From NCBI GenBank assembly GCA_036478235.1, contig JAZGDZ010000040.1:12841-76840 (forward strand): a stretch of 64,000 nt of DNA, read 5' to 3'. The stretch comes from Acidimicrobiia bacterium (GTDB lineage: Bacteria > Actinomycetota > Acidimicrobiia > Spongiisociales > UBA11373). Of this stretch, positions 3,539 through 59,660 are shown piece by piece. The notes beneath the pieces were generated by a model. It was not told where the DNA came from and did not search any database. It saw nothing but the letters and a program-made list of their open reading frames with translations. The position numbers and the translations under genes are program-made. Position 1 is the first letter of the stretch, and each line of letters starts with the position of its first letter.

Positions 3539-3937
3539 CTATGCGAAGAAAAGCCGGATTTCGCGCTCCGCGCTGTCGAGCGAATCCGATCCGTGCACGA
3601 TGTTCTCCGTGATGACGGTGCCGAAGTCGCCGCGAATCGTTCCGGAAAGTGCCTCCCCGGGGTCGGTTGGACCCATCAGCGACCGGACCACGGACACGGC
3701 GTCCGGGCCGGACCATTCAATGGCCACGACCGGGCCGCTCGTGATGAAGGACACGAGGTCGGCGAAAAACGACTTGTCGGTGTGCTCGGCGTAGTGGCGC
3801 CCGGCGAGATCCTCATCGATGGTGAGCATCCGCATCCGCTCCAGGCGCAGGCCCTCGTTTTCGAAGCGGCCGATCACCTCGCCGACCAACCCGCGCCGAA
3901 CACCATCGGGCTTGACCATCACGAAGGTGTGTTCCAT
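3539..3937 (-). CDS. ndk: Nucleoside diphosphate kinase
   Basis: [26 protein letters not shown]...NIVHGSDS. The ORF track extends to 3985 (MTDDYSP...), but the conserved NDK N-terminus begins at MEHTF. Confidence 0.9.
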
Positions 3938-3980
3938 CGCTGTGCTCTCTTCGGTGGATCCGGCGGGAGAGTAGTCATCG

Positions 3981-4080
3981 GTCACCAGTCACCAGTCACC
4001 AGTCACCAGTCACCAGTCACCAGTCACCGAAGAGCCATAACGCGTTCTGGCTGGGGACTGGAAGCTGGAGACTGGAGACT
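3981..4080. repeat. Heptanucleotide tandem repeats: (GTCACCA/CAGTCAC)x~7 at 3981-4027, then GACTGGA-like x~4 at 4056-4080. Together they form an imperfect inverted pair
   Basis: Read directly: ggtcaccagtcaccagtcaccagtcaccagtcaccagtcaccagtcacc...ggactggaagctggagactggagact. Sits between the folC stop and the ndk start. Confidence 0.9.
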
Positions 4081-7955: not shown

Positions 7956-8215
7956 GCTCGTTCATCTGCAGTCGAAGATGATAGGCCGAGTCCCGGCACG
8001 GGTCGAAGATCGGAGCCTGCAGACCTGCGACCGCCGGACAGGCACGAGGCCGGCGCAGCTGCGCCGGCCTCGAGATCCCTTCCTCTGGTCCGGAGCGGAT
8101 GATTCCGGACCACGAATTAATGAGGAGATAGCCCGCTAAGACCATAAGCCGAACCGCGACGCGCTACAACGGCCATTTCCCGCGGTACCGACGGACTAGT
8201 CAAGCGGCGTGACCA

Positions 8216-8580
8216 AGAGCGTCCGCAAATAGGCGGACGCTCTTTCGCGATGTTGATGGCTCTTCGCCGTACGGCTCATCGCTGGTTTGGCTACGGCTTT
8301 CGGGATTTGGCTCCGTATTTGGCTGCGGCGTTCGGGTCCTATCCGGCCCCGAGACGCCTCCGCATGGATGAGCCGCCCTGCGGGCGGCGCTCCGTTCTAC
8401 GTTCGAGTCCTGCTCGGCCTGGAAACGCCTCCGCATGGTGGATCCGCCCTTCGGGCGGACAGCGTTCTACCTGTTCGGCCCCGAAGAGCCTCCGCATGGT
8501 TGTGCCGCCTTGTAGGCGACGCAGTGCTCTACTGCCCGAGGGCCCCAGCCCCAGGCCGCCGAGTCCGCGCCTATCGGCGC
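8216..8580. repeat. Array of modular intergenic repeats. A hairpin module (AGAGCGTCCGC-loop-GCGGACGCTCT, 8216-8243), then an ATGGCTCTTCGCCGTACGGCTCATCGCTGG module, then three tandem ~60-bp units (8338-8527) each with a GCCGCCC-TGC-GGGCGGC hairpin, then a GGCCGCCGAGTCCGCGCCT module
   Basis: Direct reading. The same modules recur at 12048-12179, 36378-36600, 40323-40670 (reverse complement), 50955-51085 and 51923-52092. Confidence 0.9.
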
Positions 8581-8585
8581 GCCCT

Positions 8586-9860
8586 CTAAGCGCTGCGCTC
8601 TTCGGGCAAATCCTTGCCGATGTCCTGCATCGGGATGAGCGTCGGATTGACGCGCTCGCGCACCACGTCGCCGTCGATCATCACCCGGGCCACGTCCTCG
8701 CGACCCGGCAGCTCGTACATCGTGTCGAGAAGGACCTCCTCGAGGATGGCCCTCAACCCTCGGGCCCCGATGGCACGCAGCATCGCCTGATCGGCCACGG
8801 CCTCGAGAGCGTCGTCGGAGAAGACGAGCTCCACGCCGTCCATCTCGAAGAACTTGGCGTACTGCTTGACCAGGGCGTTTTTCGGCTCGAGCAGCACCCT
8901 TATGAGCTGCTCGCGGTCCAGATCGTGCACCGTCGTGGTCACCGGGAGCCGGCCGATGAACTCGGGGATCAGGCCGAAGGTCATCAGATCCTCGGGAAGC
9001 ACGTCCGAGAGGGTGTCTGCGTCCCGGTCCCGGTCGCTGTGAACGTGAGCGTCGAAGCCGATGGCGCGCTTACCCACCCGACGCTCGATGATGTGCTCCA
9101 GCCCCGAGAAGGCCCCGCCGCAGATGAACAGCATGTTCGTGGTGTCGATCTGCAGGAACTCCTGGTGAGGATGCTTTCGCCCACCCTGGGGCGGGACGGA
9201 GGCGACGGTTCCCTCGAGGATCTTCAGGAGCGCCTGCTGAACGCCCTCGCCCGAGACGTCGCGGGTGATGGACGGGTTCTCCGCCTTGCGAGCGATCTTG
9301 TCGATCTCGTCGATGTAGATGATCCCCGTCTCGGCTCGCTTGATGTCGTAGTCCGCCGCCTGAATGATCTTCAGCAGAATGTTCTCGACGTCCTCACCGA
9401 CGTACCCGGCCTCGGTGAGCGCCGTGGCGTCGGCGATGGCGAACGGGACGTTCAGCGTCCGCGCCAGAGTCTGGGCGAGCAGGGTCTTGCCCGAACCCGT
9501 CGGCCCGATGAGCAGGATGTTGGACTTCTGCAGCTCGATGTCGTCCTTTGATCGCTGCCCGACCCGCACCCGCTTGTAGTGGTTGTAGACCGCCACCGAG
9601 AGGACCTTCTTGGCCAACTCCTGCCCCACCACGTAGTCCTCCAGGAAGGTGTAGATCGCCGCGGGCTTGGGAAGCTCGTCGAAGGGCGTCTCCTCGGTCG
9701 TGGCGAGTTCCTCCTCGATGATCTCGTTGCAGAGATCGATGCACTCGTCACAGATATAGACACCCGGACCGGCGATGAGCTTCTTGACCTGCTTCTGCGT
9801 CTTGCCGCAGAAGGAACACTTCAGAAGGTCACCGCCGCCGGTCTCACCGAATTTCGACAT
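8586..9860 (-). CDS. clpX: ATP-dependent Clp protease ATP-binding subunit ClpX
   Basis: N-terminal C4 zinc finger (CSFCGK...CDEC), Walker A GPTGSGKT, and ClpX motifs. Confidence 0.95.
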
Positions 9861-11952: not shown

Positions 11953-12047
11953 TTCTGCTCCTCCATCGAACACAACAGAGCGAGACGGCGCCCATGCCGC
12001 CTCGCCGAATCTCATCGCCCTTCACCATACGGCCCATCACCAGTCTG

Positions 12048-12179
12048 GCTCCGACGCTCGGGATCTGGCTCCGAGACGCCTCCGCACGGTGGTGCCGCCC
12101 CAAGAGGCGGCGCCATATTCTACGACCCGGGTCCCGGCCCAGGCCGCCGAGTCCACGCCTGTCGGCGTGTGCTCTTCGG
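12048..12179. repeat. Copy of the modular intergenic repeat (GGCTCCG...GAGACGCCTCCGCACGG...GCCGCCGAGTCCACGCCTGTCGGCG)
   Basis: Sequence similarity to 8280-8580. Confidence 0.8.
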
Positions 12180-13361: not shown

Positions 13362-13668
13362 CGCCGTGCCAATCTTATCCCCCGCCAGACACCCGATCGG
13401 GCTCGCCATGTGCCAGGAAGACAACCCTTCTCCGCGTCGGGCGTGACCCTTCTCCGCGACAGCCAACGCCTCGCGATGCTGCTCCACTACGAAGAACTAG
13501 CACGAGCCGCCAGATAGGAGGGAAGCAACCCGGAACCCGTAGCGTGACCGACCCGTTCGAGACCGAGCAGGCTCGAACGGGGTCGGACCCCCCAACCAAT
13601 CGAGCTCCGCTCGATTGACTCCCCTCGAGCGGTTCGAGACCGGGTAGGACTCGAACCCGCGAGATGAG

Positions 13669-13742
13669 TCGGGCTGGCCGGATTTGAACCGGCGACCCCC
13701 TGCTCCCAAAGCAGGTGCGCTGCCAAGCTGCGCCACAGCCCG
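13669..13742 (-). tRNA. tRNA-Pro (TGG)
   Basis: Reverse complement CGGGCTGTGGCGCAGCTTGGCAGCGCACCTGCTTTGGGAGCAGGGGGTCGCCGGTTCAAATCCGGCCAGCCCGA. Confidence 0.8.
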
Positions 13743-13764
13743 TTGAACGGCATTGTGCCAGCCA

Positions 13765-13835
13765 CTCGTGCGGGCGGTGGGATTCGAACCTTCTCCGCGC
13801 CACCGGCGAGCCGCGATGCTCGCTCCCTCAAGAGA
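13765..13835 (-). pseudogene. Degenerate duplicate of the tRNA-Leu 3' half (T-arm and acceptor 3' strand) fused to a shared GGAGCGAGCATCGCGG...CGCGGAGAAGG module
   Basis: Reverse complement ...GGGAGCGAGCATCGCGGCTCGCCGGTGGCGCGGAGAAGGTTCGAATCCCACCGCCCGCACGAG. The last 24 nt equal the 3' end of tRNA-Leu at 13937-13960. No 5' half. Confidence 0.6.
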
Positions 13836-13936
13836 GTGAGGACGAGAGTAGCTGGGGATGAGGGGAGTGGGGCGTTGTGGCGAGGGGAGCTTCGAGGCCG
13901 AGCAGGACTCGAAGTTCTCCGACCTCGTATGCGTCC

Positions 13937-14025
13937 TGGTGCGGGCGGTGGGATTCGAACCCACAGCGGGTCTGAGACCCACCGGATCCTAAGTCCGGCG
14001 CCTATGCCGGTTCGGCTACGCCCGC
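13937..14025 (-). tRNA. tRNA-Leu (TAG), class II with a long variable arm, CCA encoded
   Basis: Reverse complement GCGGGCGTAGCCGAACCGGCATAGGCGCCGGACTTAGGATCCGGTGGGTCTCAGACCCGCTGTGGGTTCGAATCCCACCGCCCGCACCA. Confidence 0.85.
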
Positions 14026-14084
14026 GCAGATCCCAGGGTATCGGCAGACGATCTCACCGTTTGCCAAAACGCTATTCTCGCCGC

Positions 14085-14157
14085 GGGTCGCTAGCTCAAC
14101 CTGGCAGAGCAACGGACTCTTAATCCGCAGGTTCGGGGTTCGAATCCCCGGCGACCC
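14085..14157 (+). tRNA. tRNA-Lys (CTT)
   Basis: GGGTCGCTAGCTCAACCTGGCAGAGCAACGGACTCTTAATCCGCAGGTTCGGGGTTCGAATCCCCGGCGACCCA. Confidence 0.8.
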
Positions 14158-14264
14158 ACCGGCTCGCGAACGAATCCCGCGGCACATCGCCGCCGACTGG
14201 CGGCGACGCTTGCTCCCCACCAATCGACGAGAACCTCATCCCCCGCGGCTCGCATCGGCGCCTC

Positions 14265-14331
14265 CGGACGGAGCGAGCATCGCGGATCGCGAGAACGCGG
14301 AGAAGGTTCGAATCCCCGGCGACCCACCGGC
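14265..14331 (+). pseudogene. Duplicate of the tRNA-Lys 3' half preceded by the same GGAGCGAGCATCGCGG...CGCGGAGAAGG module
   Basis: cggagcgagcatcgcggatcgcgagaacgcggagaaggttcgaatccccggcgacccaccggctcgcgaacgaat. About 65 nt are repeated directly from 14130-14198. Confidence 0.6.
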
Positions 14332-14363
14332 TCGCGAACGAATTCCGCGGCACATCGCCGCCG

Positions 14364-14389
14364 ACTGGAGACTGAGGACTGGTGACTCT
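14364..14389. repeat. Heptamer tandem repeat GACTGGA GACTGAG GACTGGT GACTC
   Basis: Direct reading. Adjacent to the USP gene stop. Confidence 0.8.
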
Positions 14390-14400
14390 TGCGGCCAGTC

Positions 14401-14844
14401 TTACGGCACGACCATCAGCGCACAGGGGGCGTGGTGGGCCAACCGATCGGCCACGCTACCGAGCACGAGGCGCTCGACCAAGCCGGCGCCGCGCCGACCG
14501 ACGACGAGCAGGCCTGCGCCCACCTGTTCGCAATAGGCCGACAGGGCGCTCGCCGGATCGCCGATCTCCTCGGTGACGACAACGTCGAGCCCCTCGGTGT
14601 CGATGGCGCTCATGGTCGTGTCGAGCACCGAGCGCTGGGCCCGCTCCATGGAAGCCGACAACGCATCAGCCGGCGGAGGGGATCCCACGACGCCCCACCA
14701 TCCCTCCGGAGGGCGGACCACGGTGATCACGTCGAGCTTCGATCCGTGCAGCCTCGCCATTCCGGCGGCGACCCGGGCGGCCCTGATGCTCTGCTCGGAC
14801 CCATCGACGCCGACGACGATTCGAACCGGATCCCAAACGGTCAT
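14401..14844 (-). CDS. Universal stress protein (UspA family)
   Basis: 147 aa. VRIVVGVDGSEQS ... GSVADRLAHHAPCALMVV is the USP fold signature. Confidence 0.85.
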   Translation of the reverse strand: MTVWDPVRIVVGVDGSEQSIRAARVAAGMARLHGSKLDVITVVRPPEGWWGVVGSPPPADALSASMERAQRSVLDTTMSAIDTEGLDVVVTEEIGDPASALSAYCEQVGAGLLVVGRRGAGLVERLVLGSVADRLAHHAPCALMVVP

Positions 14845-20960: not shown

Positions 20961-21481
20961 CTCAGGGACCCGAGAAGGACGCCCTGCTCGACGACGTCGA
21001 GCTGGTCGAGCGGGCCGTCGATCGCGTCATCTCCGATGCGCGTTCCCGCGGGTCCGACGCACCCCGCAGCGCCGATCTGAGGGCCATTGCCCGCGAGCGC
21101 GCCGCTTTCTGGAGCGCGCTCGCCGTCGATCAGCAGCGCAGGCTGAAGATCGACGTGCCGACCTCAGTGCTGAACGTCCACGCCACGAAGGACGACATCG
21201 GTCGCGTCCTCGACACCCTCATGGAGAACGTCTTCGCCCACACCGAGCCCGGTACCGAGATCTCGATCACCGTCACCTCGACTGGAGTGCTCCTCATCGA
21301 GGACGGCGGTGCCGGATTCGAGCCATCGGCGGCGGAGCGCGGTGCGAGCGGAGGCGGCTCCACCGGGCTCGGCCTCGACATCGTGCAGCGCATCACCGAT
21401 CGCAATGGAGGGACGTTGACGATCGATGCCTCGTCGCTGGGCGGCGCCCGGGTCAGCGTCGCCTTCCGGACCCGCCCGTAG
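20954..21481 (+). pseudogene. Histidine-kinase remnant: HATPase_c domain with the tail of the dimerisation region, no sensor, no H-box and no usable start
   Basis: ...LDTLMENVFAHTEPGTEISITV...IEDGGAGFEP...GGGSTGLGLDIVQRITDRNGGTLTIDAS are the N/G1/G2 boxes. The in-frame region upstream is the polypyrimidine tract and the end of the TPP gene. First in-frame ATG/GTG lie inside the ATPase domain. Confidence 0.6.
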
Positions 21482-21519
21482 CCCGAGTGCGGGGCCCGCA
21501 AGGGGCCCCCGCCCGATGA

Positions 21520-23223
21520 TCAGCCCTGCGGTCGCCTCTCGGCCCTAGCGACGCCACCCCGGACATGATCGCGCAGGACGTCGAGACCGACGGCCCCGAC
21601 CTCGAGCAGCCGCGAGTGGAAGGCCTTCTGGTCGTACCCGGCACCGAGCCGTGCCATCTCCTCGCTGCGCAGGTCGCGGATCGCCTGCTGCCCGACCTTG
21701 TAGGAGATCGCCTGCCCGGGCCAACCCAGGTAGCGATTCATCTCCGAGACGGACATGGCGTGATCCTGAGCGGCGTAGGCGTCGAGCATCTCGACTCCGC
21801 TCTCGAAGGTCCAGTGCTCGCCCGGGTGGAAGGGCTGCCCCTGAGGAATCTGCAGCTCGAGGTGGGAGCCGATGTCGATCACCACGCGGCACGCCCGCAG
21901 CATCTCCGATGCGAGCTTGCCCATCACGTAATCGGGCTTTTCGAGATAGCCGAGCTCTTCCATCAGGTCCTCGGCATACAGCGCCCAGCCCTCGCCCGAT
22001 CCCGAGTACCAGATCAAGAGCTTCTGCATACGAGAGACGCGGTCGCCGGCCGTCAGCTGCAGGCCGGTCTGCAGGTGGTGCCCGGGAAACCCCTCGTGGT
22101 ATGCGGTGCTGATCTCGTCGAACAGGGGAATCTGCTGCTGGTCCCCCTTCGACCAGTAGATGGTTCCGGGCCGCTTGAAGTCCTCGCTCGGCGAGTAGTA
22201 ATAGGCGCCGAGCGAGCCCCCCGGCGGCGTCATCTTGACGTCGATCGATTTGATCTCGTCCGGGACGTCGAAGTGCTCGCCGTCCAGCTCCCGCAACGCG
22301 ATCATCTGGCGTTGCAGCATGAGCTCGGAAAACTCGTCCTGGCTCTTCGCCGCCCTCCCCGGGTCCGTCAGCAGCAGCTCCAGGGCGGCCGCGAGACCGC
22401 CTCCGGGAAGGATCTCCTCGGCCAGATCGGCCATCCTCGCCCGGAGGCGCTCGACCTCTTCCCATCCCCACTCGTAGGTCGCGACGGGATCGATCTGCGC
22501 GCCGAGGAACCTGGCGGCCAGGTGGGCGTACCGTTCCGGCCCGACCGCGTCCCGCTCGGCGGCCGCCGGCAAGTACTCCTGCTCGAGATAATCGGCGATG
22601 CGGCCGAATCCGGAGCGGGCGAGTTCGACTCCGGCTGCCAGCCGCCGCAGCAGAGCGGCGTCTCCAAGGCCCGACTCGGTGAGCGAGGCGGGGTACGTGG
22701 TGAAGTGGGAGTCTGCTCCTGCGTGATTGCGCGCCTGTCTGACGACCTCCTCCACCTGACGCCGAGCCACGGTCGATCCGCGCCCCTTTCCCGCGTTCAT
22801 GCGAGAGACGTACTCCTCGGCAGCGGCCGGGAGCCGCTCCAGCCGCGAAGCAATGTTCTCCCAGCCCTCGGCGCTCGACTTGTCCATCTGATCGAACGTG
22901 TCGCGTAGATCCTGCGGCGTCGAGGCAATGCTGTTGAGGTCGAGATAGTGCTCACCGAGATCGTGATCGGCGAGATCGCGCTCCAACTCGGCGACCACGA
23001 CCTCCCCGGCAAGCTCGGCCCATTCGTCGTCCGCGTCGGGCAACGACCGCACCCGCCGAATCTGATCCCTCATCATCCCGGCGACGGCGTCGTATCCCTC
23101 GACCGAGAAGTCATTCCACAAGTGGTCGTATCCGGGAATGCCGAGATAGGTGGCGAGTATCGGGACGGCCGCCACGATCTCGTCGACGATGTCGCTGCTG
23201 AGGGAGTAGATGTCCTCGTTCAA
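21520..23223 (-). CDS. DUF885 family protein
   Basis: 567 aa with the DUF885 signature ...AYHEGFPGHHLQ.... Confidence 0.7.
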   Translation of the reverse strand: MNEDIYSLSSDIVDEIVAAVPILATYLGIPGYDHLWNDFSVEGYDAVAGMMRDQIRRVRSLPDADDEWAELAGEVVVAELERDLADHDLGEHYLDLNSIASTPQDLRDTFDQMDKSSAEGWENIASRLERLPAAAEEYVSRMNAGKGRGSTVARRQVEEVVRQARNHAGADSHFTTYPASLTESGLGDAALLRRLAAGVELARSGFGRIADYLEQEYLPAAAERDAVGPERYAHLAARFLGAQIDPVATYEWGWEEVERLRARMADLAEEILPGGGLAAALELLLTDPGRAAKSQDEFSELMLQRQMIALRELDGEHFDVPDEIKSIDVKMTPPGGSLGAYYYSPSEDFKRPGTIYWSKGDQQQIPLFDEISTAYHEGFPGHHLQTGLQLTAGDRVSRMQKLLIWYSGSGEGWALYAEDLMEELGYLEKPDYVMGKLASEMLRACRVVIDIGSHLELQIPQGQPFHPGEHWTFESGVEMLDAYAAQDHAMSVSEMNRYLGWPGQAISYKVGQQAIRDLRSEEMARLGAGYDQKAFHSRLLEVGAVGLDVLRDHVRGGVARAERRPQG

Positions 23224-23302
23224 GCTGCTCTGCTCCGGGGAAGGCCCGGAGCGACGATAGCCCCGAAGAGTGCAAGAGACGGGCCGTTATCGTCTCCGGT
23301 TC

Positions 23303-23992
23303 ATGTCACCGCGACCGCCGGCACGGCCATCCATTGCAGGGATCGTCGATATCGCCCCCATCCTCATCGGAGTGGTCCCGTTCGGGATCATCGCCGGCAT
23401 CGCTGCGGTGGAGGCCGGACTGGGAACGTTCCAGGCGTATGCCGTTTCGCCTCTGGTCTTCGCCGGCGCCGCCCAGTTGGCGATGACGGACCTGATCTCC
23501 CGCGACGCGGCCGCGATCGTCGTCGTCGCAACCGCCCTCGTGATCAACTCCCGTTTTGCGATGTACAGCGCGTCGCTGGCGCCGACATTCGGGCGGGTGG
23601 GCGCGATGCGCAAGGCGGTGGCGGCGTACCTATTGACCGATCAGGCTTTTGCGGTGAGCGTCGTCCGCTTCGACCGGGTCGACGAACCGATTTCAGCGCG
23701 CTACGCCTACTACCTCGGGGCGGGGATGGCCCTGTGGGTCACCTGGCTGGTCTCCTCGGCCGTCGGAGTGGTGGTGGGCGCGGGCGTTCCCGCTGAGTGG
23801 TCGCTCGATTTCGCCATTCCTCTGGTCTTCATCGCCTTGCTCTTCGCGGCGGTCAACGACCGGGGAACTGGGATCGCCGCCGTCGCAGGTTTTGTTGCCG
23901 CGGTGGCTTTCGCCGGACTCCCCCTGAACCTGGGACTGCTGGTGGCATCGGGTGTGGGTATCGCCGCCGGGGTCGTCGGACAGAGACGATGA
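23303..23992 (+). CDS. azlC: AzlC family branched-chain amino acid permease subunit
   Basis: Polytopic membrane protein, AzlC-like. Immediately followed by azlD with an ATGA overlap. The start could instead be GTG 23270. Confidence 0.7.
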   Translation: MSPRPPARPSIAGIVDIAPILIGVVPFGIIAGIAAVEAGLGTFQAYAVSPLVFAGAAQLAMTDLISRDAAAIVVVATALVINSRFAMYSASLAPTFGRVGAMRKAVAAYLLTDQAFAVSVVRFDRVDEPISARYAYYLGAGMALWVTWLVSSAVGVVVGAGVPAEWSLDFAIPLVFIALLFAAVNDRGTGIAAVAGFVAAVAFAGLPLNLGLLVASGVGIAAGVVGQRR

Positions 23993-28751: not shown

Positions 28752-28905
28752 GAAAGTCTCCAGTCTCCAGCCAGCGTCGCTGTCGATCGCCCGCCCCACG
28801 ATCGCCCGCAAAGCGATTGCCCGCCGAGCCCAGCGAGGCGATTGCCGGAGGCTCTCTGGGAGCCGACGCTTAGCAAGTTGCCAGCTGCCAGCTGCCAGTA
28901 GCTTC
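28752..28905. repeat. Cluster of short tandem repeats: (TCTCCAG)x2, CGATCGCCCGC/GCGATTGCCCGCC family x3-4, (GCCAGCT)x3
   Basis: gtctccagtctccag...cgatcgcccgccccacgatcgcccgcaaagcgattgcccgcc...gaggcgattgccgg...ttgccagctgccagctgccagtagc. Confidence 0.85.
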
Positions 28906-28919
28906 TCAGTCCACGCTCC

Positions 28920-29077
28920 TGTGCCGCATCGCCCGTTGCATCCCCATGCCCATGGCTCTTCGGCTCACACCTCATCGCAGTGTCGCCCGGGTCCCTGCCC
29001 GGGCGACCGAGATGCAACGATGTGCCACCGCTACATCACATCAATCGATGTCCTTGTGCCGCATCGCCCGTTGCATC
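28920..29077. mobile_element. 112-bp hairpin-containing insert (repeat-family module ATGGCTCTTCGGCTCACACCTCATCGCAG + GTCGCCCGGG-tccctg-CCCGGGCGAC hairpin) flanked by a 23-bp direct duplication (TGTGCCGCATCGCCCGTTGCATC) at the smpB 3' end
   Basis: Copies at 28920-28942 and 29055-29077. The second copy encodes MQRAMRH of SmpB, and the insert supplies the final KDID* codons. The outer copy would encode ...MQRAMRHRSVD*. Confidence 0.7.
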
Positions 29078-33488: not shown

Positions 33489-33523
33489 GGCGCGGCGGAG
33501 GATAACCAGTTGGCCATTGGCCA

Positions 33524-33596
33524 GGCATCAGGCATTAGGCACCAGTCACCAGTCACCAGAAGGATGACGCGCCCTGACTGGAAACTGGAGACTCGA
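33524..33596. repeat. Heptamer tandem repeats (AGGCATY)x3, (CACCAGT)x3, (GACTGGA-like)x3 in the prfB upstream/secA downstream spacer
   Basis: aggcatcaggcattaggcaccagtcaccagtcaccaga...gactggaaactggagactcga. Confidence 0.85.
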
Positions 33597-33703: not shown

Positions 33704-36331
33704 CTACGTGACTGCTCCATGACACTTCTTGTACTTCTTGCCGCTGCCGCAGTGGCACGGATCATTGCGGCCGATCTTGTCGCCGGCGTTTGCCTGACGC
33801 TTGAAGGCGGCCCCGCCGGTGCCGCCGAGCCTCACGACGGGGTCGGGACGGTTCTGCTGTTCGACCACCTGGCTGTGGAACAGGTACCGGACACTGTCGA
33901 CCTTGATGCTGTCCACCATGTCGGCGAACATGTCGTAGGCCTCCCGCTGATACTCGGTCAGAGGGTCGCGCTGCCCCATGGCGCGCAACCCGATGCCCGA
34001 CCGCAGGTAGTCCATCTCGGCGAGTTGCTCCCGCCACTTGGTATCGACGATCGACAGCACCACGGTTCGCTCCAGAGTGCGCAGCAGTTGGGCCCCGAGC
34101 TGCTCGCCTCGAGCCGTGTACACCTCCTGGGCATCCTCCGCCACCCGGTCCACGACGGCCTCACGGTCGTCGCCCGGCTTCACCAGGTCGCCGACCTCCA
34201 GCCGAATGGGATAGATGACCTCCAGCCTTCGATGCAGCTCCTCGGCTTCCCATTGCTCCGGAGCGATCTCATCCGAGATGGCGTTGCCGGTCTCGATGTC
34301 GATCACCTCGTCGACCCAATCGCGCACCAGCTGTTCGGTGTCGCGGCCGGTGAGAACCCGCTGCCGCCAGTCGTAGATCACCTCACGCTGACGGGTCATC
34401 ACCTCGTCGTACTTGAGGACGTTCTTGCGAATCTCGAGGTTCTGCGACTCCACCTGGCGCTGGGCCCTTTCGATGGCGTTGGTCACCATCTTGGCCTCGA
34501 TCGGGACGTCTTCGGGGATACGCAGCCGTTTCATGATCGATTGCACGCGATCGGTGGCGAAGCGACGCATGAGATCGTCCTCGAGCGAGAGGTAAAAGCG
34601 CGACTCGCCCGGATCGCCCTGGCGCCCCGACCTTCCCCGGAGCTGGTTGTCGATGCGACGCGCTTCGTGCCGCTCGGTGGCGAGCACGTAGAGCCCGCCG
34701 AGTTCGATCACCTTCGCCATCTCGGCGTCGGTCTCGGCCTTGAGAGTCTCGAAGGCCTCGGAATAGACCCCTTCGTACTCTTCGTCGTCGGGGGAGGTCC
34801 CGCGTTTGCTCATCTCCTGAACGGCCATCGCCTCCGGGTTGCCGCCGAGCCGGATATCGACGCCGCGTCCCGCCATGTTCGTGGCCACGGTGATCGCGCC
34901 CAAGCGACCAGCCTGGGCGATGATCGGACCCTCTCGTTCGTGTTGTTTGGCGTTGAGGACTTCGTGGGGAATCCCCTTCTTCTTGAGGACCGCGGACAGC
35001 CGCTCGGAGTTCTCGATGCTGATCGTGCCGACGAGCACCGGCTGCCCGCTGGCGTGACGCTCCACGAGGTCCTCGGTGAGAGCATTGAACTTGGCGTCCT
35101 CGGTCATGTAGACGAGATCGGGCTGGTCGAGGCGGACGATCGGCTCGTTGGTCGGAACCACCACGACGTCGAGACCGTAGATCTCGTTGAACTCACCGGC
35201 CTCTGTGATCGCCGTCCCGGTCATGCCCGCCAGCTTGTCGTACAACCGGAAGTAGTTCTGCAGCGTGATGGTCGCCAGCGTCTGGTTCTCCTCCTTGATC
35301 CGGACGCCCTCCTTGGCTTCGATCGCCTGATGAAGGCCCTCGCTGTAGCGCCTCCCTTCGAGGATCCTGCCGGTGAACTCGTCGACGATCTTCACCTCGC
35401 CGTTGGCTACCACGTAGTCGATGTCCCGCTGGTAGAGAGCCTTGGCTTTCAAGGCCACGTCGAGATGGTGGATGAAGTCCACGTTGGTGTGGTCGTACAT
35501 GTTCTCGATGCCCAGGAAGCGTTCGACCTGAGTGACTCCCCCCTCAGTCGTGATCACCTGCCGCTTCCCTTCGTCCACCTCGTAGTGGGTCTCGGCGTGG
35601 AGCCTTTGAGCCATGCGGGCGAAGTCGCGATACCACTTGGCAGTCTCGCCAACCCGGCCGCTGATGATGAGCGGAGTCCTCGCCTCGTCGATGAGGATGG
35701 AGTCCACCTCGTCGACGATCGCGTACTGGTGCCCCCTTTGCACCATGTACTTCGGGTCCATGGCCATGTTGTCCCGCAGGTAGTCGAAACCGAACTCGTT
35801 GTTGGTGCCGTAGGTCAGGTCGGCCGCATACGCCGGCCTGCGCTCCTCCGGCTGCATGTCGGCCTGGATGAGCCCGACGGTCAGCCCAAGGAACAGGTAC
35901 ACCCCGCCCATCCACTCGGCGTCCCGCTTGGCGAGATAGTCGTTGACCGTTACGACGTGTACGCCCTTGCCCTCCAAAGCGTTGAGGTAAACCGGCATGG
36001 TGGAAACGAGCGTCTTGCCCTCCCCGGTGCGCATCTCGGCGATCGCATGGCGGTGAAGGGCTGCCGCGCCGATGACCTGGACATCGAAGTGGCGCTGGCC
36101 GAGCACCCGCCGGGCGGCCTCGCGTACGACGGCAAACGCCTCGGCCTCGATGTCGTCCAGCGTCTCCCCGTCCGCCAGCCGCCTGCGAAACTCATCGGTC
36201 TTGGCCTTGAGAGCCTCGTCCCCGAGAGCCTCAATCTCGGGCTCGAACCCGTTGACGGCGTCGGCGACCCTCTCGAGCTCTTTGAGCTTCTTGCCCTCGC
36301 CCGCGCTCAGGATCTTCTTCAGCAGGGCCAT
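33704..36331 (-). CDS. secA: Preprotein translocase ATPase SecA
   Basis: [20 protein letters not shown]... DEAD motor and a C-terminal Zn finger [14 protein letters not shown]. The ORF-track N-terminal extension ([12 protein letters not shown]...) is encoded by an intergenic repeat module, so the start is set at ATG 36331. Confidence 0.93.
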
Positions 36332-36377: not shown

Positions 36378-36600
36378 AAAGAGGGCGCACCGACAGGCGC
36401 GGACTCGGCGGCCTGGGGCTGGGGACCCCGGGCCGTACAGCGATGAGCCGTAAGGCGAAGAGCCATCGACAAAGAGGGCGCGCCGCTAGGCGCGGACTCG
36501 GCGGCCTGGAGCGAGCGCCGTAGCCAAACCAGCGATGAGCCGTAAGGCGAAGAGCCATCAGCATCGGTTGAGAGTCCGCTTCATAAGCGGACACTCAACG
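36378..36600. repeat. Two tandem ~94-bp copies of repeat module (AGAGGGCGCRCCG-AGGCGCGGACTCGGCGGCCTGG...CAGCGATGAGCCGTAAGGCGAAGAGCCATC) plus a terminal hairpin (TTGAGAGTCCGC-ttcataa-GCGGACACTCAA)
   Basis: Direct reading. Homologous to 50955-51085 and, in reverse complement, to 8216-8300. Confidence 0.85.
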
Positions 36601-39610: not shown

Positions 39611-40159
39611 TGTGGTTCGATCAGCCCGAGCGTGCCTCCGCGGCGCCGGTACAACACTCCGTACCGGTCTGTCTCCGCGTTGAGGAACAGATAGAAGCTG
39701 TGTCCAAGCGTCTCCATCTGAAGGGCTGCCTCCTCTGGCGTCATCGGCTTGACGGCGAACTGCTTGATCCGCTCGATGCGGAGTCCGCGGTCTTCATCGT
39801 TGGTTACTTCGACGCCAGAGGCGGGGCCATTGAGTCGTTTCTCACCGCGCCGGTGCCGGGAGATGAGCCGCTCCTTGAGCCGCCGCAAGGTTCGCTCGAA
39901 TTTGTCCACAGCCCTGTCGAGAGCGGCACGCTCGTCGAACTCGGCCGCTTCGACTCTCACCGTGTGACCTGCCGCCGCTGCGGTGATCTCGACGCGGAAT
40001 CGTTCCGAAGCGATTCTGGGGTTGTGCTCCTCGGAGAATTCGACGTCGGCGAACGCAGCATCGTCAAACACCCTGGACGCATGGATGACCTTCTCTTCGG
40101 CAAGGATCCTCAGGTCGTCGTCGAGGGACATGTGATTGCCGTGGATACGAACCTCCACC
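39607..40159 (-). CDS. hpf: Ribosome hibernation promoting factor, long form
   Basis: VEVRIHGNHMSLDDDLRILAEEKV... plus a C-terminal dimerisation domain. GTG start 40159 with AAGGAG 5 nt upstream. The ORF-track 5' extension was rejected. Confidence 0.8.
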
Positions 40160-40322
40160 GTGTCTCCTTTCGCAGACGCGTCAGAACACCGTTTGGGCGC
40201 GGTCGGTGTGGCGAGCGTTGGGCCGGTAACGATGCGGGGCTCTTGGCACCCGTCCTCCCGTAGCTCTCGGTCCCCGTCTCGGGGGCTCACTACATCCTAC
40301 GGATGATCCGGGAGTTGCGTTG

Positions 40323-40670
40323 GCCAGGAGTCTGCTGAGTGATGCCGTTGCTCAGATCGTGGAACACAGCGCCGCCCGCAGGGCGGCTCAATCATGCGGA
40401 GGCGCTTCGGGGCCGAGCAGGACCCGAACGCCGCAGCCAAACCGGGCCAGGCGCGCCAGTCGCCAGGATCTCGGGTTCGCCACTCCTCGCGCAGGAATGG
40501 CGGGACCGTGGACACCGCTAGTGGCGATGTAGATCACAGCGCCGCCCGCAGGGCGGCACGTCCATGCGGAGGTGCTTCGGGGTCGAGCAGGACTCGAACG
40601 CCGCAGCCAAATACGTAGCCAAATACGGAGCCAAATCTGGACGTCGAGATGAGTGACATGTATTGCTCAG
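40323..40670. mobile_element. MITE-like non-autonomous element (~350 bp) with ~17-bp imperfect terminal inverted repeats (GCCAGGAGTCTGCTGAGT ... TGCTCAGCGGGCTCCCAG) and an internal tandem duplication of a ~130-bp hairpin unit
   Basis: Termini read directly. Interior is the reverse complement of the 8280-8420 modules. A shorter derivative lies at 51923-52092. Confidence 0.7.
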
Positions 40671-40681
40671 CGGGCTCCCAG

Positions 40682-48775: not shown

Positions 48776-50914
48776 TCCCACCCGGCGTTTGCGGCGAACG
48801 GCCCACACAGCCAGACCGACGATCGTGCCCAGCGACAGCAGCTTCCCGACGGTCTCAAAAATCCGATCCTTGAACTCGATGACCACATCCGGTTCAGTGG
48901 GCACGACGATCATGAGGGAAGGAGCCGCCCGATAGGGACCGCTCGCCCCTGTGGCCACCCAGTTGGGGAACCAGGAGACCTTCACCAGGTGGGGCACACC
49001 GATCGCCGTCGTCGTGAACGAGATTCGGTGGTCGTCGAGGACCACGTCGGTGACCGCCGTCGCGGCGGAGAGGCGCCGGCGGCTCAGCAGGGCGACGTCG
49101 TCGATGCGCCTCCACGCCTCGGGCCCCGACTCGACGATCCACCTGTCGAGCCCGTTGACGTTGTCGTACCACTCGAGGGCCGCATCGACGAACGACTCTT
49201 CGCCCGCCCACACCACAGGTTCGAACGCCCCGATCTCGACCAGAGGGGTCTCCGGCAACCGGAACACCGTGAAGGGCTTCGAGAGGGCCGCGACGTCGAG
49301 GCCGTACTCGTGAGCGGCTTGTGTGGCGGATTCGGTGAACGAAACGTAGTAAGCGACGTCATACACCGCCAGGTGCTTGACCGCCCGATCGAAGTCCATC
49401 CCCGAGTATGGAAGTCCCGGGATCGGGTTGGAGGGTCGCTGGCTCACCTCCGAAGCATTGACGAAGTGAAACGGTGTTGTGAGCGACGACTCGAAGAGCA
49501 GGCCTTCCATCGACGGATGCCCCTCCGACCAGTACCCGGTCAGCATGAGCGCCATCGGAGTGCCGTATCGGTTGAGATCGCTGTTGGCCTCCCACATGAC
49601 CCTCCCATCGGGGAGCCGGTCGAGCGTCGCCATCAGCCCGGAGTACTCGGACCAGCAGTCGCCCTGGATCTGCTCGCCGTCTTCGCCGCATTCGATGGCG
49701 GCCTTGTCCTCGTACCCGCTGAAGTTCCAGCCCGCCCACTTGGGCGCCTTGTTGATCCCGAGCCCGGCTGCCGTGAGGAAGAAGACCGCGCCGATCGCGG
49801 CTGCCACCCACCTCACCTCGGGGCCACCACGCAACCGCACCGCCATCGACCGCGCCGCCGCACCGACCGCCACCCCGGCGAGAACGAAGGCCGTGAAGTA
49901 CCAGAACGGGAGGAGACGAGCGTTGTATAACTTTCGGAAGTCGAGGTACTCGATGATGAAGTAGCCGGCGACCGGCAGCACCAGCAGGGCGATCGTCGGC
50001 CCGAGCGTGGCCCGCCGCCATATCGCGTAGATGACGCCGGCCGCAGCGAGGACCAGCACCGGCCACAACTCCCGCGGAAAGACGGCCTCGAAGCCCTTCA
50101 CCGGAAACCATTTCATGTCGGTCGTGTACGACAGCGTCGCCAACAGCGGAAGGGCCCAGAAAGCGGAGATGCCGAAACCGACCGCCCAGCCGCCGGCGAG
50201 CGTTGTGGGACCGCGACGCTTGAACAGGAGCGGGAGAGAAACCAGCACGATGACCGCGGTCGTGATCAAGTGACTGAGCGCGGTGAGGGCAAGAATGATG
50301 CCCGTTCCGACCGTAAACCCTCTCCCCTCCCTCAGGTTGCCCATCAGCATCCCCAGGTAGAGGAACGCGAAGGCAAACGACCAGGAGAACGAATACTCCC
50401 CGGCCAGCGTCGACAAGGTATTCCCGCCGAAGATCGAAAACGACTCCATGAAGACGAACGTTCCGCCGGCGACTCCGGCTACCACAGCCACCGATCGGGC
50501 GAATCCCATCCCCCTGGCGAACACGTAGGCGGCGAACGGGAGCGCCACCAGCCCGGCCACCGTCACGAGTTTGAAGGCGACTCCATAGGGCAGGAACACA
50601 TCGAGCAGCACGATGGTGAACGCCGGCAGCGGGAAGTAGAAGTAGAGGACCGGAAAGCCGGCGTACCAGTCGTTGCTCCACCCCAGAAGGCGCCCACCGG
50701 GGAGCAGGCTGTCGCGCACATAGGCCGGGACCAGAACGTGAGCCCCCATGTCGCCTCCGGCCGGAGTGTTGGCGAGGAAGATGCGATCTGGGCGCATGTA
50801 CCCGAATGCCATCGCCGCGCCGAGCGCCAGGATCGCAGGCACGACGAACCTCAGCCACGGCCTGGTCGAGTCGGGCCGGGTCAGACGCGGCGGAGCCTGA
50901 GTCGAGGCGGTCAC
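48761..50914 (-). CDS. Large polytopic membrane protein (717 aa), candidate GT-C fold glycosyltransferase using the lipid-linked sugar made by the adjacent GT2
   Basis: About 11 N-terminal TM helices, then a ~330-aa extracytoplasmic domain, then a C-terminal TM anchor. Convergent with the Ppm1-like GT2. No recognisable named family at sequence level. Confidence 0.5.
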   Translation of the reverse strand: MTASTQAPPRLTRPDSTRPWLRFVVPAILALGAAMAFGYMRPDRIFLANTPAGGDMGAHVLVPAYVRDSLLPGGRLLGWSNDWYAGFPVLYFYFPLPAFTIVLLDVFLPYGVAFKLVTVAGLVALPFAAYVFARGMGFARSVAVVAGVAGGTFVFMESFSIFGGNTLSTLAGEYSFSWSFAFAFLYLGMLMGNLREGRGFTVGTGIILALTALSHLITTAVIVLVSLPLLFKRRGPTTLAGGWAVGFGISAFWALPLLATLSYTTDMKWFPVKGFEAVFPRELWPVLVLAAAGVIYAIWRRATLGPTIALLVLPVAGYFIIEYLDFRKLYNARLLPFWYFTAFVLAGVAVGAAARSMAVRLRGGPEVRWVAAAIGAVFFLTAAGLGINKAPKWAGWNFSGYEDKAAIECGEDGEQIQGDCWSEYSGLMATLDRLPDGRVMWEANSDLNRYGTPMALMLTGYWSEGHPSMEGLLFESSLTTPFHFVNASEVSQRPSNPIPGLPYSGMDFDRAVKHLAVYDVAYYVSFTESATQAAHEYGLDVAALSKPFTVFRLPETPLVEIGAFEPVVWAGEESFVDAALEWYDNVNGLDRWIVESGPEAWRRIDDVALLSRRRLSAATAVTDVVLDDHRISFTTTAIGVPHLVKVSWFPNWVATGASGPYRAAPSLMIVVPTEPDVVIEFKDRIFETVGKLLSLGTIVGLAVWAVRRKRRVGLEVA

Positions 50915-50954
50915 GGTCTCAGCAGGCTAACGCCGCGGCCTGCCAAAGGGTTCA

Positions 50955-51085
50955 GAGAGGGCGCGCCGACAGGCGCGAACTCGGCGGCCTGGGGCTGGGG
51001 CCCCCGGGCCGCACAGCGATGAGCCGTATGGCGAAGAGCCATCGACAATGCTGAGAGCGTCCGCCTATTTGCGGACGCTCTCAGC
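50955..51085. repeat. Copy of repeat module (AGAGAGGGCGCGCCGACAGGCGCGAACTCGGCGGCCTGGGGCTGGGG...CAGCGATGAGCCGTATGGCGAAGAGCCATCGACAA) plus a 15-bp-stem hairpin GCTGAGAGCGTCCGC-ctattt-GCGGACGCTCTCAGC
   Basis: Direct reading. The hairpin abuts or overlaps the stop codon of the 51081-51278 gene, so it is a likely terminator. Confidence 0.85.
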
Positions 51086-51922: not shown

Positions 51923-52092
51923 GCCAGGAGTCTGCTGAGTAATGCCGTTGCTCAGATCGGCGGCCAGACGCGCCACTCGCCAGGACCTCGGATTCGCCAC
52001 TCCTCGCGCAGGAATGGCGGGACCGAGGACACCGCGAGCGGTGATGGATGGTCGCCGAGATGAGTGACATGTATTGCTCAGCGGGCTCCTAG
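51923..52092. mobile_element. Short (~170 bp) derivative of the 40323-40670 MITE-like element with the same termini
   Basis: gccaggagtctgctgagtaatgccgttgctcag...gagatgagtgacatgtattgctcagcgggctcctag. Its right end supplies the last 5 codons and the TGA of the 52078-52458 gene. Confidence 0.7.
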
Positions 52093-52458
52093 CCTCACCG
52101 CGCTCCGCAGCCTGCGCCTTGAAACCTTCCCGGCGAGACGAGCCAGTTCGACGCCGTCCGCATCCCTCACCACGACCAGTGGTACCCCGATCACCCCAAC
52201 GCGGCGCTGCAGGTCGGGGGAATCCGAATAAGAGATCTCCCTGTAGTCGACACCGAGACGGTCGAGTTCGGCCCGCACCGCGTCGCATCTCGAACACACG
52301 GAGTCGCTGAAGAAGAGGATGCGCCCCTCGACACCGGTCAGATGAAGCGCCGTCCGCAGCACATTTCGCCGATCTCGGCTACGGGCGGCCGCGGCGACGA
52401 GCAGGGCGACACCAAGTGCCCCGCCCACCAGCGCCACCCGGGGAAGGAGCTCAATCAT
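52078..52458 (-). CDS. Membrane-anchored glutaredoxin/thioredoxin-like protein
   Basis: N-terminal TM (LLPRVALVGGALGVALLVAAAA), CxxC (FFSDSVCSRCDAV), glutaredoxin-like fold. Confidence 0.65.
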   Translation of the reverse strand: MIELLPRVALVGGALGVALLVAAAARSRDRRNVLRTALHLTGVEGRILFFSDSVCSRCDAVRAELDRLGVDYREISYSDSPDLQRRVGVIGVPLVVVRDADGVELARLAGKVSRRRLRSAVRLGAR

Positions 52459-53782
52459 CGACGACGGGGAGGCCCCCCGAGAAAGCGGCCCCCGACGGTC
52501 CTTGGATCGACCATGCCGCGGTGAAGGGATCCGAGGCCTCGACCAACACACCCAGGGCATCGGGCTCGACGATCTGGATGGCTACCTGCGTCCCGGGCTC
52601 GACGAGAATCTGGGTGTTGATTGCGGCGACGCCGGTCAGCTCACTGACCGTGACTGAAATCTGCTCGAAGCTCGAGTTGAGCAGCCACAGCGTCCCCTCG
52701 TTGAGGCCGAGGGTGCGCAGACCGGGCAAGAGCCAGGTCCGCGCGGTGACCGGGGCGCCGCCCGTCACGGCGGTCCCGGCTCCTCCCGCCGCCACCACAC
52801 CGGCAACGACCGGGGTGGAAGCCGCCACCCGGACGCCGACCACGTCGTCGGTCACTTCACCGAGGCCGATCCGCAGCGGGGCCTCCGGGGGCACGGTGAA
52901 CTCGAATGCAGCCCGCTGTGGTCCCTCGCTGGTGTACAGATCGACGGTGACGGTGACATCGACGAGATTGGGGTTTCCGACGACGATCGCAGCGTCTTCG
53001 AGACCAGCGACCCGAGCAACGGGAAATTCCCACTCTGTGGACAGGTCGGTTCCCAACCACCAGGCCTCGTCCTCTCCCGCGGTGTAAGACATGGCGGGCA
53101 CCACCAGCCCTTCGTCGACCCGTACCGAGATGATCAGAGCCTGGCGCTGACGCAGCATCTCCTCGAAGTCGATATCGCGCCACGACCGCGGGTTGATCGA
53201 GATCGACCGCAACTCGCCCAGTGCCTCGACCCCGATCTCACTGAATCCCGTCACCGTGACCTTCGCCGTCTCCGGGAACGGGTTGAAGAGGCGCAGCCTC
53301 ATCTTCTCCCCGACGAGTGTCGAACCGCCCGCAAAGAACCACTCGTCGGGCCCCTGGGCGACACAAGTGTCCGCCGTGACAACGTCGCCGATGACCGTTA
53401 CGCCGACCGCCGCAGGCCCATCGCTGAACTCCACGAAGCCCGGCGAATCCCCCCGCTGGGCGATGTCCGACAGGGTCACCACTGCTGCTCCCGGCCCCAA
53501 CGTCTCGACCGAGGCCTCGTCCGGTGGTTCACCCGGAATCGCCACCGGAAGTGTGAATTCGGCGTCGGCATCGGTCAGCGTCGCCACACCGAAGAACGAG
53601 TCTCGAGATGCGTTTGCTTGGGCCCACGGGCAATACCAGATGCTGGCGTCGACCGGTGACTCGATCCCGGGCCGGATGATCACCAGGCTGGCGAGAGGAT
53701 CGGGCGGTGCCTCAGGAGCCGGCAGGATCGCCGCGATCCCGCCGAGACCGAGGACTAGCCCGACAACGAGAAGGCGCCTCAC
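52451..53782 (-). CDS. Secreted or anchored hypothetical protein (443 aa)
   Basis: N-terminal signal-anchor MRRLLVVGLVLGLGGIAAIL, beta-rich. GTG start overlapping the stop of the upstream GT gene (GTGA). Confidence 0.5.
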   Translation of the reverse strand: MRRLLVVGLVLGLGGIAAILPAPEAPPDPLASLVIIRPGIESPVDASIWYCPWAQANASRDSFFGVATLTDADAEFTLPVAIPGEPPDEASVETLGPGAAVVTLSDIAQRGDSPGFVEFSDGPAAVGVTVIGDVVTADTCVAQGPDEWFFAGGSTLVGEKMRLRLFNPFPETAKVTVTGFSEIGVEALGELRSISINPRSWRDIDFEEMLRQRQALIISVRVDEGLVVPAMSYTAGEDEAWWLGTDLSTEWEFPVARVAGLEDAAIVVGNPNLVDVTVTVDLYTSEGPQRAAFEFTVPPEAPLRIGLGEVTDDVVGVRVAASTPVVAGVVAAGGAGTAVTGGAPVTARTWLLPGLRTLGLNEGTLWLLNSSFEQISVTVSELTGVAAINTQILVEPGTQVAIQIVEPDALGVLVEASDPFTAAWSIQGPSGAAFSGGLPVVDD

Positions 53783-59444: not shown

Positions 59445-59660
59445 CTGGCCGTTGGCCGTTGGCGTCCGGCGATCCTCGCTTCGCTCGGGGCCACCGAAAC
59501 GGGCGATCCGAGCTTCGCTCGGAGCGATCCCCCGGCGAGCACAGCGAGGCGATTGCACGTATGCGATCGCCCGCCGAGCGCAGCGAGCCGATTGCACGTA
59601 TTCGATCGCCCGGCGAGCACAGCGAACCGATTGCCACGGCTCTTGGCTACTGGCTACTGG
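59445..59660. repeat. Repeat block: (GGCCGTT)x2, CGAGCGAAGCGAGG/TCGCTTCGCTCGG motifs, 2.5 tandem ~41-bp units (CGAGCRCAGCGARSCGATTGCACGTATKCGATCGCCCG), (GGCTACT)x2
   Basis: Direct reading. The (GGCTACT)2 repeat overlaps and supplies the stop of the galE-like gene (…SSQ*). Confidence 0.85.

Follow-up and report, generated by a model that had tools for sequence, protein, structure and literature searches.

Repeat loci and their gene context

The window analysed in this work, i.e. the whole stretch of 64,000 nucleotides taken from contig JAZGDZ010000040.1 of an uncultured Acidimicrobiia bacterium, has a GC content of 66% and carries hairpin-rich intergenic repeats at seven loci. On its minus strand the gene orders are tRNA-His, element, tig-clpP-clpX, element, valS, and smpB, element, tmRNA (ssrA). 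Also read on the minus strand, with the element inverted, are the orders HD-domain gene, element, secA (33704-36331 according to Pfam), and 65-aa ORF, element, gene of a 717-aa membrane protein. The repeat features are given below, scores being those of the covariance model R1 described in the next section.

8215-8589, minus strand (D to A): whole clpX/valS element, composed of D, three C' units, a 12-mer spacer, B' and A
8533-8589, minus strand: module D (hairpins P1 and P2) of the clpX/valS element; R1 66 bits
8330-8532, minus strand: three tandem C' units (62, 70 and 71 nt), each GTAGAAC, GC hairpin, CCATGCGGAGGCG and second hairpin
8285-8329, minus strand: spacer of 12-mer repeats (AGCCAAAyncgg) accompanying the C' units
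8215-8284, minus strand: B' (8256-8284) and terminal hairpin A (8215-8244) of the clpX/valS element, hairpin arms 100% complementary
12014-12176, minus strand: D (12124-12176), one C' (12043-12123) and a degenerate B' (12014-12042); R1 46 bits
28952-29040, minus strand: diverged D-B' copy; R1 42 bits, E = 1e-5
36380-36598, plus strand: D-B'-D*-B'-A double unit, inverted between the HD-domain gene and secA; R1 101 and 74 bits
40324-40678, plus strand: T1-E-T2 element with two nested C' (40359-40441, 40529-40611) and 12-mer repeats
50954-51084, plus strand: simple D-B'-A unit, inverted; R1 107 bits
51924-52089, plus strand: T1-E-T2 element without C', folding into one long hairpin

The tRNA-His/tig, clpX/valS and smpB/tmRNA elements are oriented D-first, and the 3' end of the tRNA, the clpX TAG or the smpB TGA abuts or overlaps the start of D. 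The copy at 12014-12176 directly follows tRNA-His, upstream of tig; the clpX stop (8586-8588) shares the first bases of D at 8533-8589; and the copy at 28952-29040, in which P2 is kept by compensatory changes, starts right after the smpB stop (29041-29043), upstream of the tmRNA. Both inverted elements hold a stop codon in hairpin A, namely that of the HD-domain gene (TCA, 36595-36597), with the secA start at about 36331, and that of the 65-aa zinc-ribbon-like ORF (TCA, 51081-51083), which together with the 717-aa membrane-protein gene flanks the simple unit. The element at 40324-40678 lies 3 nt from the stop codon of a hydrolase gene, upstream of hpf, and T2 of the element at 51924-52089 contains the stop and last codons of a glutaredoxin-like gene (52078-52560, minus strand).

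At least the last 23 nt of smpB are duplicated at both sides of its D-B' copy (28920-28942 and 29055-29077), reading MQRAMRHKDID* in the gene and MQRAMRHRSVD* in the downstream remnant. This duplicate is far longer than the flanking repeats of the other copies.

Detection of the repeats

The first-pass annotation had described four modules, A to D, recurring at eight or more loci as one repeat family. Direct reading of positions 8100-8700 and of the six other loci found the modules in every place where they had been reported. Repeat finding and self-BLAST of the seven regions against the window returned the same seven loci together with a 25-nt partial match at 13889-13913; of the eight or more loci counted earlier, seven are solidly supported. 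Shuffled sequence would be expected to hold the 22-nt core of module D (AGGCGYGRACTCGGCGGCCTGG) 0.03 times, and the window has it five times. Model R1, built from 19 D-B' units, scored six window copies at 42-107 bits (E from 1e-5 to 1e-16). With the filters off it found nothing below E = 0.005 in the rest of the window except the detached B' at 8256-8288, and it recognised none of about 69 unrelated chance-match control loci. The modules thus recur far more often than chance would allow.

An assembly or binning artefact, with chimeric joins at the repeats, is hardly credible. Repeats do disturb assembly, as seen in the scaffold of one relative (L093), which has 100 N exactly at the clpX/valS repeat; however, the first 19.9 kb of the window are 99.995% identical to the independent record GCA_044345325.1 (L001), the same elements occur with different flanks in many assemblies, and the flanking genes are intact.

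Anatomy of the elements

The seven loci comprise two element types and one module, C', nesting in both. The proposal of a single family has therefore to be replaced by at least two element families plus the nesting module; 40323-40670 and 51923-52092 share only module C. The main unit, of about 125 nt, runs in the order D, B', terminal hairpin A, and six D units are present at five loci. D is made of hairpin P1 (GAG-GG-CGCGCC-GAYA-GGCGCG-GA-CTC) and hairpin P2 (GGCGGCCTGGGG-loop-CCCCGGGCCGC), B' is a 29-nt box (CAGCGATGAGCCGTAnGGCGAAGAGCCAT) with a small ATGGC/GCCAT hairpin, and A is a palindrome which closes the unit. One or more optional C' units stand between D and B'. The second element, T1-E-T2, of about 165 nt, is almost fully palindromic.

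Module C' starts with GTAG(A)AC followed by a GCCGCC/GGCGGC hairpin, the stretch CCATGCGGAGGCG and a second hairpin, its GC stem of 6-7 bp showing covariation and G-U pairs. This "GTAG + hairpin" module of 62-71 nt is found in both element types, singly or in tandem, mostly at the D|B' junction, and AGCCAAAyncgg 12-mers often come after it. The three tandem copies reported at clpX/valS are real, spanning 8330-8532 with units of 71, 70 and 62 nt. A tRNA-derived origin of module C, considered on account of its T-arm-like TTCGAGTCC, was rejected, as ARAGORN and Rfam found no tRNA and the flanks form no T-stem.

The ends of the D-B'-A unit, read inwards (TNAGAGGGCGCGCC against the reverse complement TNAGAGCGTCCGCC), match at about 11 of 14 positions, each end being itself palindromic. 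Inverted, they share the pattern TNAGAG[G/C]G..., with a T-N-A triplet in or next to each of them. In T1-E-T2 the terminal inverted repeats are clear, the whole element pairing end to end, and its two ends (CTAGGAGCCCGC) are likewise similar to each other.

Coding potential

With sizes of 125-370 nt, the elements have no conserved reading frame: an indel in the P2 loop of 6 of the 19 copies breaks the frame, B varies at a second codon position, and Pfam gave no match for the tested ORFs overlapping the elements. In the 922-aa secA ORF the Pfam domains begin at residue 52 and the database SecA has 875 aa, hence the ORF runs on through modules D and B. The first-pass remark that spurious peptides falsely lengthen secA is in this way borne out.

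The reading in which the ATG of module B opens a small ORF (MALR.TAHR...) linking neighbouring genes, i.e. MIRU-like coding or translational-coupling units, is very improbable. It is true that the B-ATG frame of the inverted copies runs in frame into secA, and that it stops at 50911-50914 within a GTGA which it shares with the putative start of the next gene. Against this, the indel and the second-position variation leave no conserved frame, the ATG is antisense to the flanking genes in most copies and preceded by no Shine-Dalgarno sequence, two of the three reverse frames are open merely from GC content, and none of the C' units (62, 70 and 71 nt) has a length divisible by three.

MIRUs are reported to bridge the stop and start codons of neighbouring genes. 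The present repeats resemble them in having tandem units of 60-70 nt in co-directional spacers with varying copy number (three or two in the window versus one in L092 and L096). They differ in that no ORF is conserved through the units, the sequence is unrelated, and there is no stop/start bridging, since the array is followed by other modules and by the promoter-like box of valS itself. Together with the tandem unit lengths of 62-71 nt, this speaks against the MIRU membership suggested earlier.

Stop codons, ends and target triplets

Where the surroundings of a copy could be read, a long ORF terminates 0-2 nt from D at about 13 loci, and hairpin A contains a stop codon at 36595, at 51081 and in L039 and L070. 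An element end which faces a gene end touches or overlaps the stop of that gene, and T-N-A triplets flank both ends. Between convergent genes both element ends abut stops (L004/L080, L042, L030/L070, L050); co-directional contexts are D-first in seven cases and A-first in three, and the L082 copy stands between divergent genes. The copies, earlier assigned to 3' UTRs, do not always lie in sense orientation, 36380 and 50956 being inverted relative to both neighbouring genes.

Of 19 loci, 10 have a T-N-A triplet immediately 5' of GAGGG (P ~1e-11), and 6 of 11 copies have one on the 3' side of hairpin A (P ~1e-7), compared with a background of 2.6%. The junctions fit a duplication of 3-4 bp with one mismatch each, no perfect pair being seen: TAAC (empty) versus TAAG...CAAG; TGAG or TAGG (empty) versus TTAG...TTGG; and TAG (empty) versus TGA...TTA. 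From these few junction comparisons, in which the flanking triplets seldom match each other exactly, we infer that a stop-codon-containing target of 3-4 bp may have been duplicated and acquired one later mismatch.

Empty and filled sites in relatives

A genome scan revealed real copies in two MAGs (L003-L006) and one chance match, and a metagenome scan gave 15 real copies among 83 matches. Their differing flanks correspond to about 19 independent gene contexts. Orthologous sites were reached via relatives of ClpX and of SecA, one of the relatives compared being from deep marine sediment (PMC8319310). The contents of four sites were as follows.

clpX to valS: window, D-C'x3-B'-A; 97-98% relatives, another palindromic element with one C' (L092) or 100 N (L093); 85-93% relatives (L090, L091), stop codon, about 10 nt and the conserved valS promoter-like box; L094, no element, unrelated sequence instead
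HD to secA: window filled; 97-98% relative (L096) likewise filled, some parts being deleted and one C unit being extra; 85-93% relatives (L097-L099), no element in a spacer of 51-93 nt
hydrolase to hpf: window, T1-E-T2 with two C'; 97-98% relative (L096), T1-E-T2 with one C'; 85-93% relatives (L097-L099), absent
smpB to tmRNA (ssrA): window filled; site not covered in the 97-98% relatives; L097-L099 unfilled, with unrelated sequence there

All four sites are without the element in relatives at 85-93% protein identity, and their content varies even at 97-98%. At a further site, AzlC/DUF885, a metagenomic sequence (L082) has a complete unit and there is none in the window (23263-23343) or in L042; the junctions read GA-TAAC-GGCC when empty and TAAG-[GAGGG...CTCTC]-CAAG-GGCC when filled. 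This makes five filled/empty orthologous sites in all. L006 has module C' at the D|B' junction, and its orthologues L050 and L017 do not. No canonical copy was present in about 44 kb of the relative with 93% ClpX identity, the inspection of the L097 half covering three sites. What looked like an empty site at 21480-21520, opposite L042, was rejected as not syntenic, the upstream gene being different.

The palindromic element of L092, the relative with 97% ClpX identity, is a third one (3599-3780, ends GTGCCCTGACCGG...CCGGACAGGGCAC); it carries one C' and occupies the exact clpX/valS position of the D-C'x3-B'-A element of the window.

The tRNA-His/tig copy alone is common to the clade and becomes increasingly degenerate, L090 keeping just a P1-like hairpin. 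The window copy at 12014-12176 is the oldest, syntenically conserved copy, and the only old one. Between genomes, D and B' keep an identity of about 90-95% where the DNA of housekeeping genes agrees at only about 70%; this conservation and the clade-wide tRNA-His copy fit selection at the level of the host as well as recent spread.

The first-pass annotation had stated that an assembly artefact, or ordinary UTRs conserved in synteny, would overturn the repeat interpretation. The gene contexts in independent assemblies, about 19 in number, and the filled and empty orthologous sites speak against both. Its description of a modular, hairpin-rich, dispersed intergenic repeat system abutting stop codons is supported. 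Gains limited to single lineages, one element replacing another at a given site, and nesting together make up the pattern of mobile DNA. An origin from phages or plasmids was considered and dropped, as 50,697 phage and 72,556 plasmid records gave no BLAST match and pattern matches on viral contigs were due to chance, in coding DNA.

Proposed mobility of the repeats

The repeats are best explained as mobile DNA of an uncultured Acidimicrobiia bacterium, in the form of small non-coding elements which fold into hairpins and sit against stop codons. Dispersal to many contexts, filled and empty sites, gain and loss of modules between relatives at 97-98% and hairpins kept by compensatory changes are established, and at a probability of about 0.7 we read them as the marks of lineage-specific, non-autonomous mobile repeats of the MITE/REP-like kind. 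The unit would insert at T-N-A(G) targets. A genome of 66% GC has few of these (2.6% of positions), and they cluster at the stop codons of both strands, which could be the reason that stop-to-next-gene or convergent stop-to-stop spaces are filled by the elements. T1-E-T2 would behave at targets like D-B'-A, while C' would insert into both elements, mostly at the D|B' junction, and expand in tandem. The chemistry is presumed to be that of transposition, no transposase having been found, and the transcribed hairpins may secondarily serve as U-tract-less terminators or protectors of mRNA 3' ends. The elements are probably tolerated at gene ends and possibly targeted there through T-N-A. Neither a transposase or RAYT gene nor a longer autonomous element sharing the ends turned up in about 300 kb of related sequence, and among the called genes none beside any copy encodes a transposase.

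Folding and the terminator question

The fold of a single D-B'-A unit has an energy of -88 kcal/mol (z = -6.2), or of -85 kcal/mol (z = -7.1) for the opposite strand, and the plus strand of T1-E-T2 folds end to end into one hairpin of -117 kcal/mol (z = -10.9). Covariation among near-identical copies is small (1 pair in 25). In an alignment of 30 copies, diverged ones included, which was fitted to the model and is hence biased toward structure, 12 of 25 pairs are changed on both sides and 95.8% of cells pair; none of 500 shuffles attained these figures, and slid controls gave 2-4 pairs. Hairpin A exists in the compensatory variants AGAGCG/CGCTCT, AGGGCG/CGCCCT, GGAGCG/CGCTCC and AGAGAG/CTCTCT. 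Where one side of a stem alone has changed in an intact copy, the D-to-A strand shows G-U about 12 times and A-C once; it has in addition an invariant U-G pair. Since the one-sided changes there are nearly all G-U, this appears to be the strand whose stems are maintained, be it in RNA or in single-stranded DNA, the alternative being a C-to-T bias of the non-template strand. The bias hints at an RNA or single-strand function rather than at purely selfish DNA.

The copies had been described in the first-pass annotation as likely terminators, and this is unproven. A scan for intrinsic terminators found no element hairpin with a U-tract in the sense direction, its sole match being P1 of the second D unit, in antisense. 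Some element-free spacers of relatives (HD/secA in L097, clpX/valS in L090 and L091) have no comparable hairpin by eye, and L098 and L099 carry small hairpins. A terminator or stabiliser role would therefore be dispensable, because relatives have short spacers at these places, some of them hairpin-free by eye. By analogy with REP and Correia elements and with the TRIT motif of mycobacteria, a role as terminators lacking a U-tract or as stabilisers of mRNA 3' ends is plausible.

The TRIT motif of Mycobacterium, described in an actinobacterium with about 66% GC and few classical terminators, is a conserved palindromic hairpin in many copies, with a narrow distribution of positions overlapping the stop codon, bidirectional, and reported only in Mycobacterium (Gardner et al. 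2011, PMC3152330). Our repeats likewise belong to an actinobacterium of about 66% GC, and their hairpin A and P1 show this behaviour. TRIT is a single hairpin, in contrast to hairpins built into a larger modular unit which orthologous sites demonstrably have or lack, and the likeness to the published description of TRIT is functional and positional only.

Alternatively, D-B'-A could be a host-selected RNA element of 3' ends, a terminator (factor-independent or factor-assisted) or a barrier to 3'-exonucleases, copied among gene ends by recombination with no transposase. We hold this possible, though rather unlikely. The exact placement of units at stop codons, the very stable hairpins with compensatory changes, the excess of G-U over A-C changes with the invariant U-G pair, the D-first orientation in 7 of 10 co-directional contexts, the analogy with TRIT, and the tRNA-His/tig site, whose sequence is more conserved than the neighbouring coding DNA, all agree with it. 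It is weakened by the missing U-tract after every hairpin in the sense direction and by three inverted copies and one in a divergent promoter region. Moreover, the 85-93% relatives are without the element at four sites, several of the spacers being just 10-90 nt, which makes it dispensable there, and the G-U bias could come from the C-to-T bias on the non-template strand.

Mobility and host use might also be combined. D-B'-A would then be a stop-codon-homing 'terminator cassette', which targets T-N-A(G) at gene ends, carries stop triplets in both terminal hairpins, lands on or replaces the stop in either orientation and is afterwards retained because a host factor recognises its RNA structure on the sense strand; it may have arisen from the conserved tRNA-His trailer. 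This version is speculative and we consider it improbable, but if it were true the boundaries of transcription units in the clade would be partly mobile.

Comparison with known mobile elements

Scanning the whole window with Rfam at the gathering threshold returned tRNAs and the tmRNA only, E-value scans of three repeat regions had their best hit at E = 0.046, all far below threshold, and no description of this repeat family was found in the searched literature. The repeats constitute an undescribed family of a well-known kind, the kind itself not being new. They work like MITE, REP/BIME and TRIT-type elements, yet are not MIRUs and do not appear to belong to the REP or TRIT families.

The Correia/NEMIS elements of Neisseria and the ERIC/IRU elements of enterobacteria are small, non-coding, dispersed hairpin elements with inverted ends, located near gene ends and showing insertion polymorphism. 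The mobile repeats proposed here agree with these MITEs in being small (below about 400 bp), non-coding and hairpin-forming, with many dispersed, polymorphic copies. As in Correia and ERIC, the ends may be read as imperfect inverted repeats (T1-E-T2 being palindromic nearly throughout), the target-like flanks contain AT, and the copies occupy transcribed spacers near gene ends. They differ in that D-B'-A is an ordered set of distinct hairpins and not a simple long palindrome, the flanks are T-N-A(G) instead of TA, no perfect duplication was seen and there is no sequence similarity; nor was a cognate transposase or an autonomous IS with the same ends found (about 300 kb searched for the ends, genes called near the copies). 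Among DDE transposases, those of the IS5/IS1031 and IS630 families produce duplications of the TNA/TA type.

REPs near stop codons are reported to affect upstream expression and mRNA stability. REP and BIME sequences of E. coli and Pseudomonas, including REPIN-RAYT systems, are modular mosaics of GC-rich extragenic palindromes in both orientations, like the present repeats, and C' resembles them in its 5' GTAG and short GC hairpin and in forming tandem clusters. Set beside the REP description, an imperfect palindrome of 20-40 nt with 5' GTAG, C' has GTAG(A)AC and a 6-7-bp GC stem; D, B' and A do not correspond to it. The main unit is a multi-hairpin element of 125 nt with four distinct parts and unrelated sequence, and no RAYT gene was found in about 300 kb of related sequence, so that REP membership, also suggested earlier, is not upheld.

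It is nevertheless conceivable, if doubtful, that these are REP/RAYT-type elements of the HUH, single-strand DNA kind and not cut-and-paste MITEs, with C' and perhaps D and A moved strand-specifically by a RAYT or an IS200/IS605-like enzyme and the nested mosaics arising as in BIMEs. Such movement would account for the GTAG/GTAGAAC start of C' followed by a covarying GC hairpin of 6-7 bp with G-U pairs, its entry just after G-Y-A with no clear duplication, and the mosaic architecture; the stems tolerating G-T on one strand also fit hairpins of single-stranded DNA. However, RAYT or Y1 transposase genes were absent from the Pfam lists of the fetched loci (called genes, about 150 kb of related loci; about 72 kb of this genome covered), and D-B'-A is far larger than a REP. 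A lagging-strand bias is described for IS200/IS605 elements. Both orientations of our repeats occur on one replichore, the GC skew being uniformly negative; this is unlike the IS200/IS605 pattern and counts against strand-specific movement of this type. A replication-strand bias of the repeats was rejected for the same reason.

The elements matter for annotation, since they create false N-terminal extensions (secA) and false ORFs which a covariance model like R1 would mask, and for assembly, which they break (the 100-N gap in one relative). The empty, filled and differently filled sites form a natural series for small repeats colonising stop codons in high-GC, terminator-poor Actinobacteria. 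This series could serve to test hairpin clusters as U-tract-less terminators, a debated question in Actinobacteria.

Additional observations

The spacer at 21482-21519 of the window, 38 nt between the convergent histidine-kinase gene and the next gene, is an ordinary one, with a GC hairpin (GCGGGGCCC-GCAA-GGGGCCCCCGC) and no U-tract, and is an example of a repeat-free gene end in this genome.

Two leaders next to the repeats are conserved. The valS leader (7956-8205, minus strand) is kept in all relatives (L090-L094) and contains the promoter-like box TTGACTAGTCC, then a hairpin, GAGGCCGGCGC-AGCT-GCGCCGGCCTC, with compensatory changes; in L091 and L094 the hairpin has a T-rich tail. This leader is a candidate for an attenuator or a leader RNA, and Rfam gave no match to it at the gathering threshold. 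The 5' leader of hpf (40159-40320, minus strand), GTAGGATG..CCCC..GGGG..ATCGAGAGCYACGGGAGGACGGGTGCC, is kept in all relatives (L096-L099) independently of the inserted repeat.

In the tRNA cluster at 13480-14420 there are partial 3' duplicates of two tRNAs, namely tRNA-Leu (13765-13790, 96% identical to 13936-13961) and tRNA-Lys with 40 nt of its trailer (14305-14368, matching 14137-14200 at 98%). A shared module at 13806-13834 and 14262-14290 (...GAGCGAGCATCGCGG...GCGGAGAAGGTTCGAATCC) precedes each partial tRNA duplicate; the duplicates look like att-site scars of small integrated elements. Hairpins GTTCGAG...CTCGAAC, similar to part of module C, follow tRNA-Pro and tRNA-Leu.

Intergenic heptamer microsatellites, (AGTCACC)8, (GCCAGCT)3 and (GATGTCT)n, occur at 3973-4028, 33514-33571 and 28880-28900 of the window, at 15390-15460 of L095 and at 17285-17320 of L097, and relatives have other heptamers in the same spacers, e.g. 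(TAGCGAT)5 after smpB. A 39-nt tandem repeat, GCGATCGCCCGGCGAGCACAGCGAGCCGATTGCACGTAT, present in 2.8 copies at 59524-59634 with a related single copy near the tmRNA (28813-28851), represents a further repeat family.
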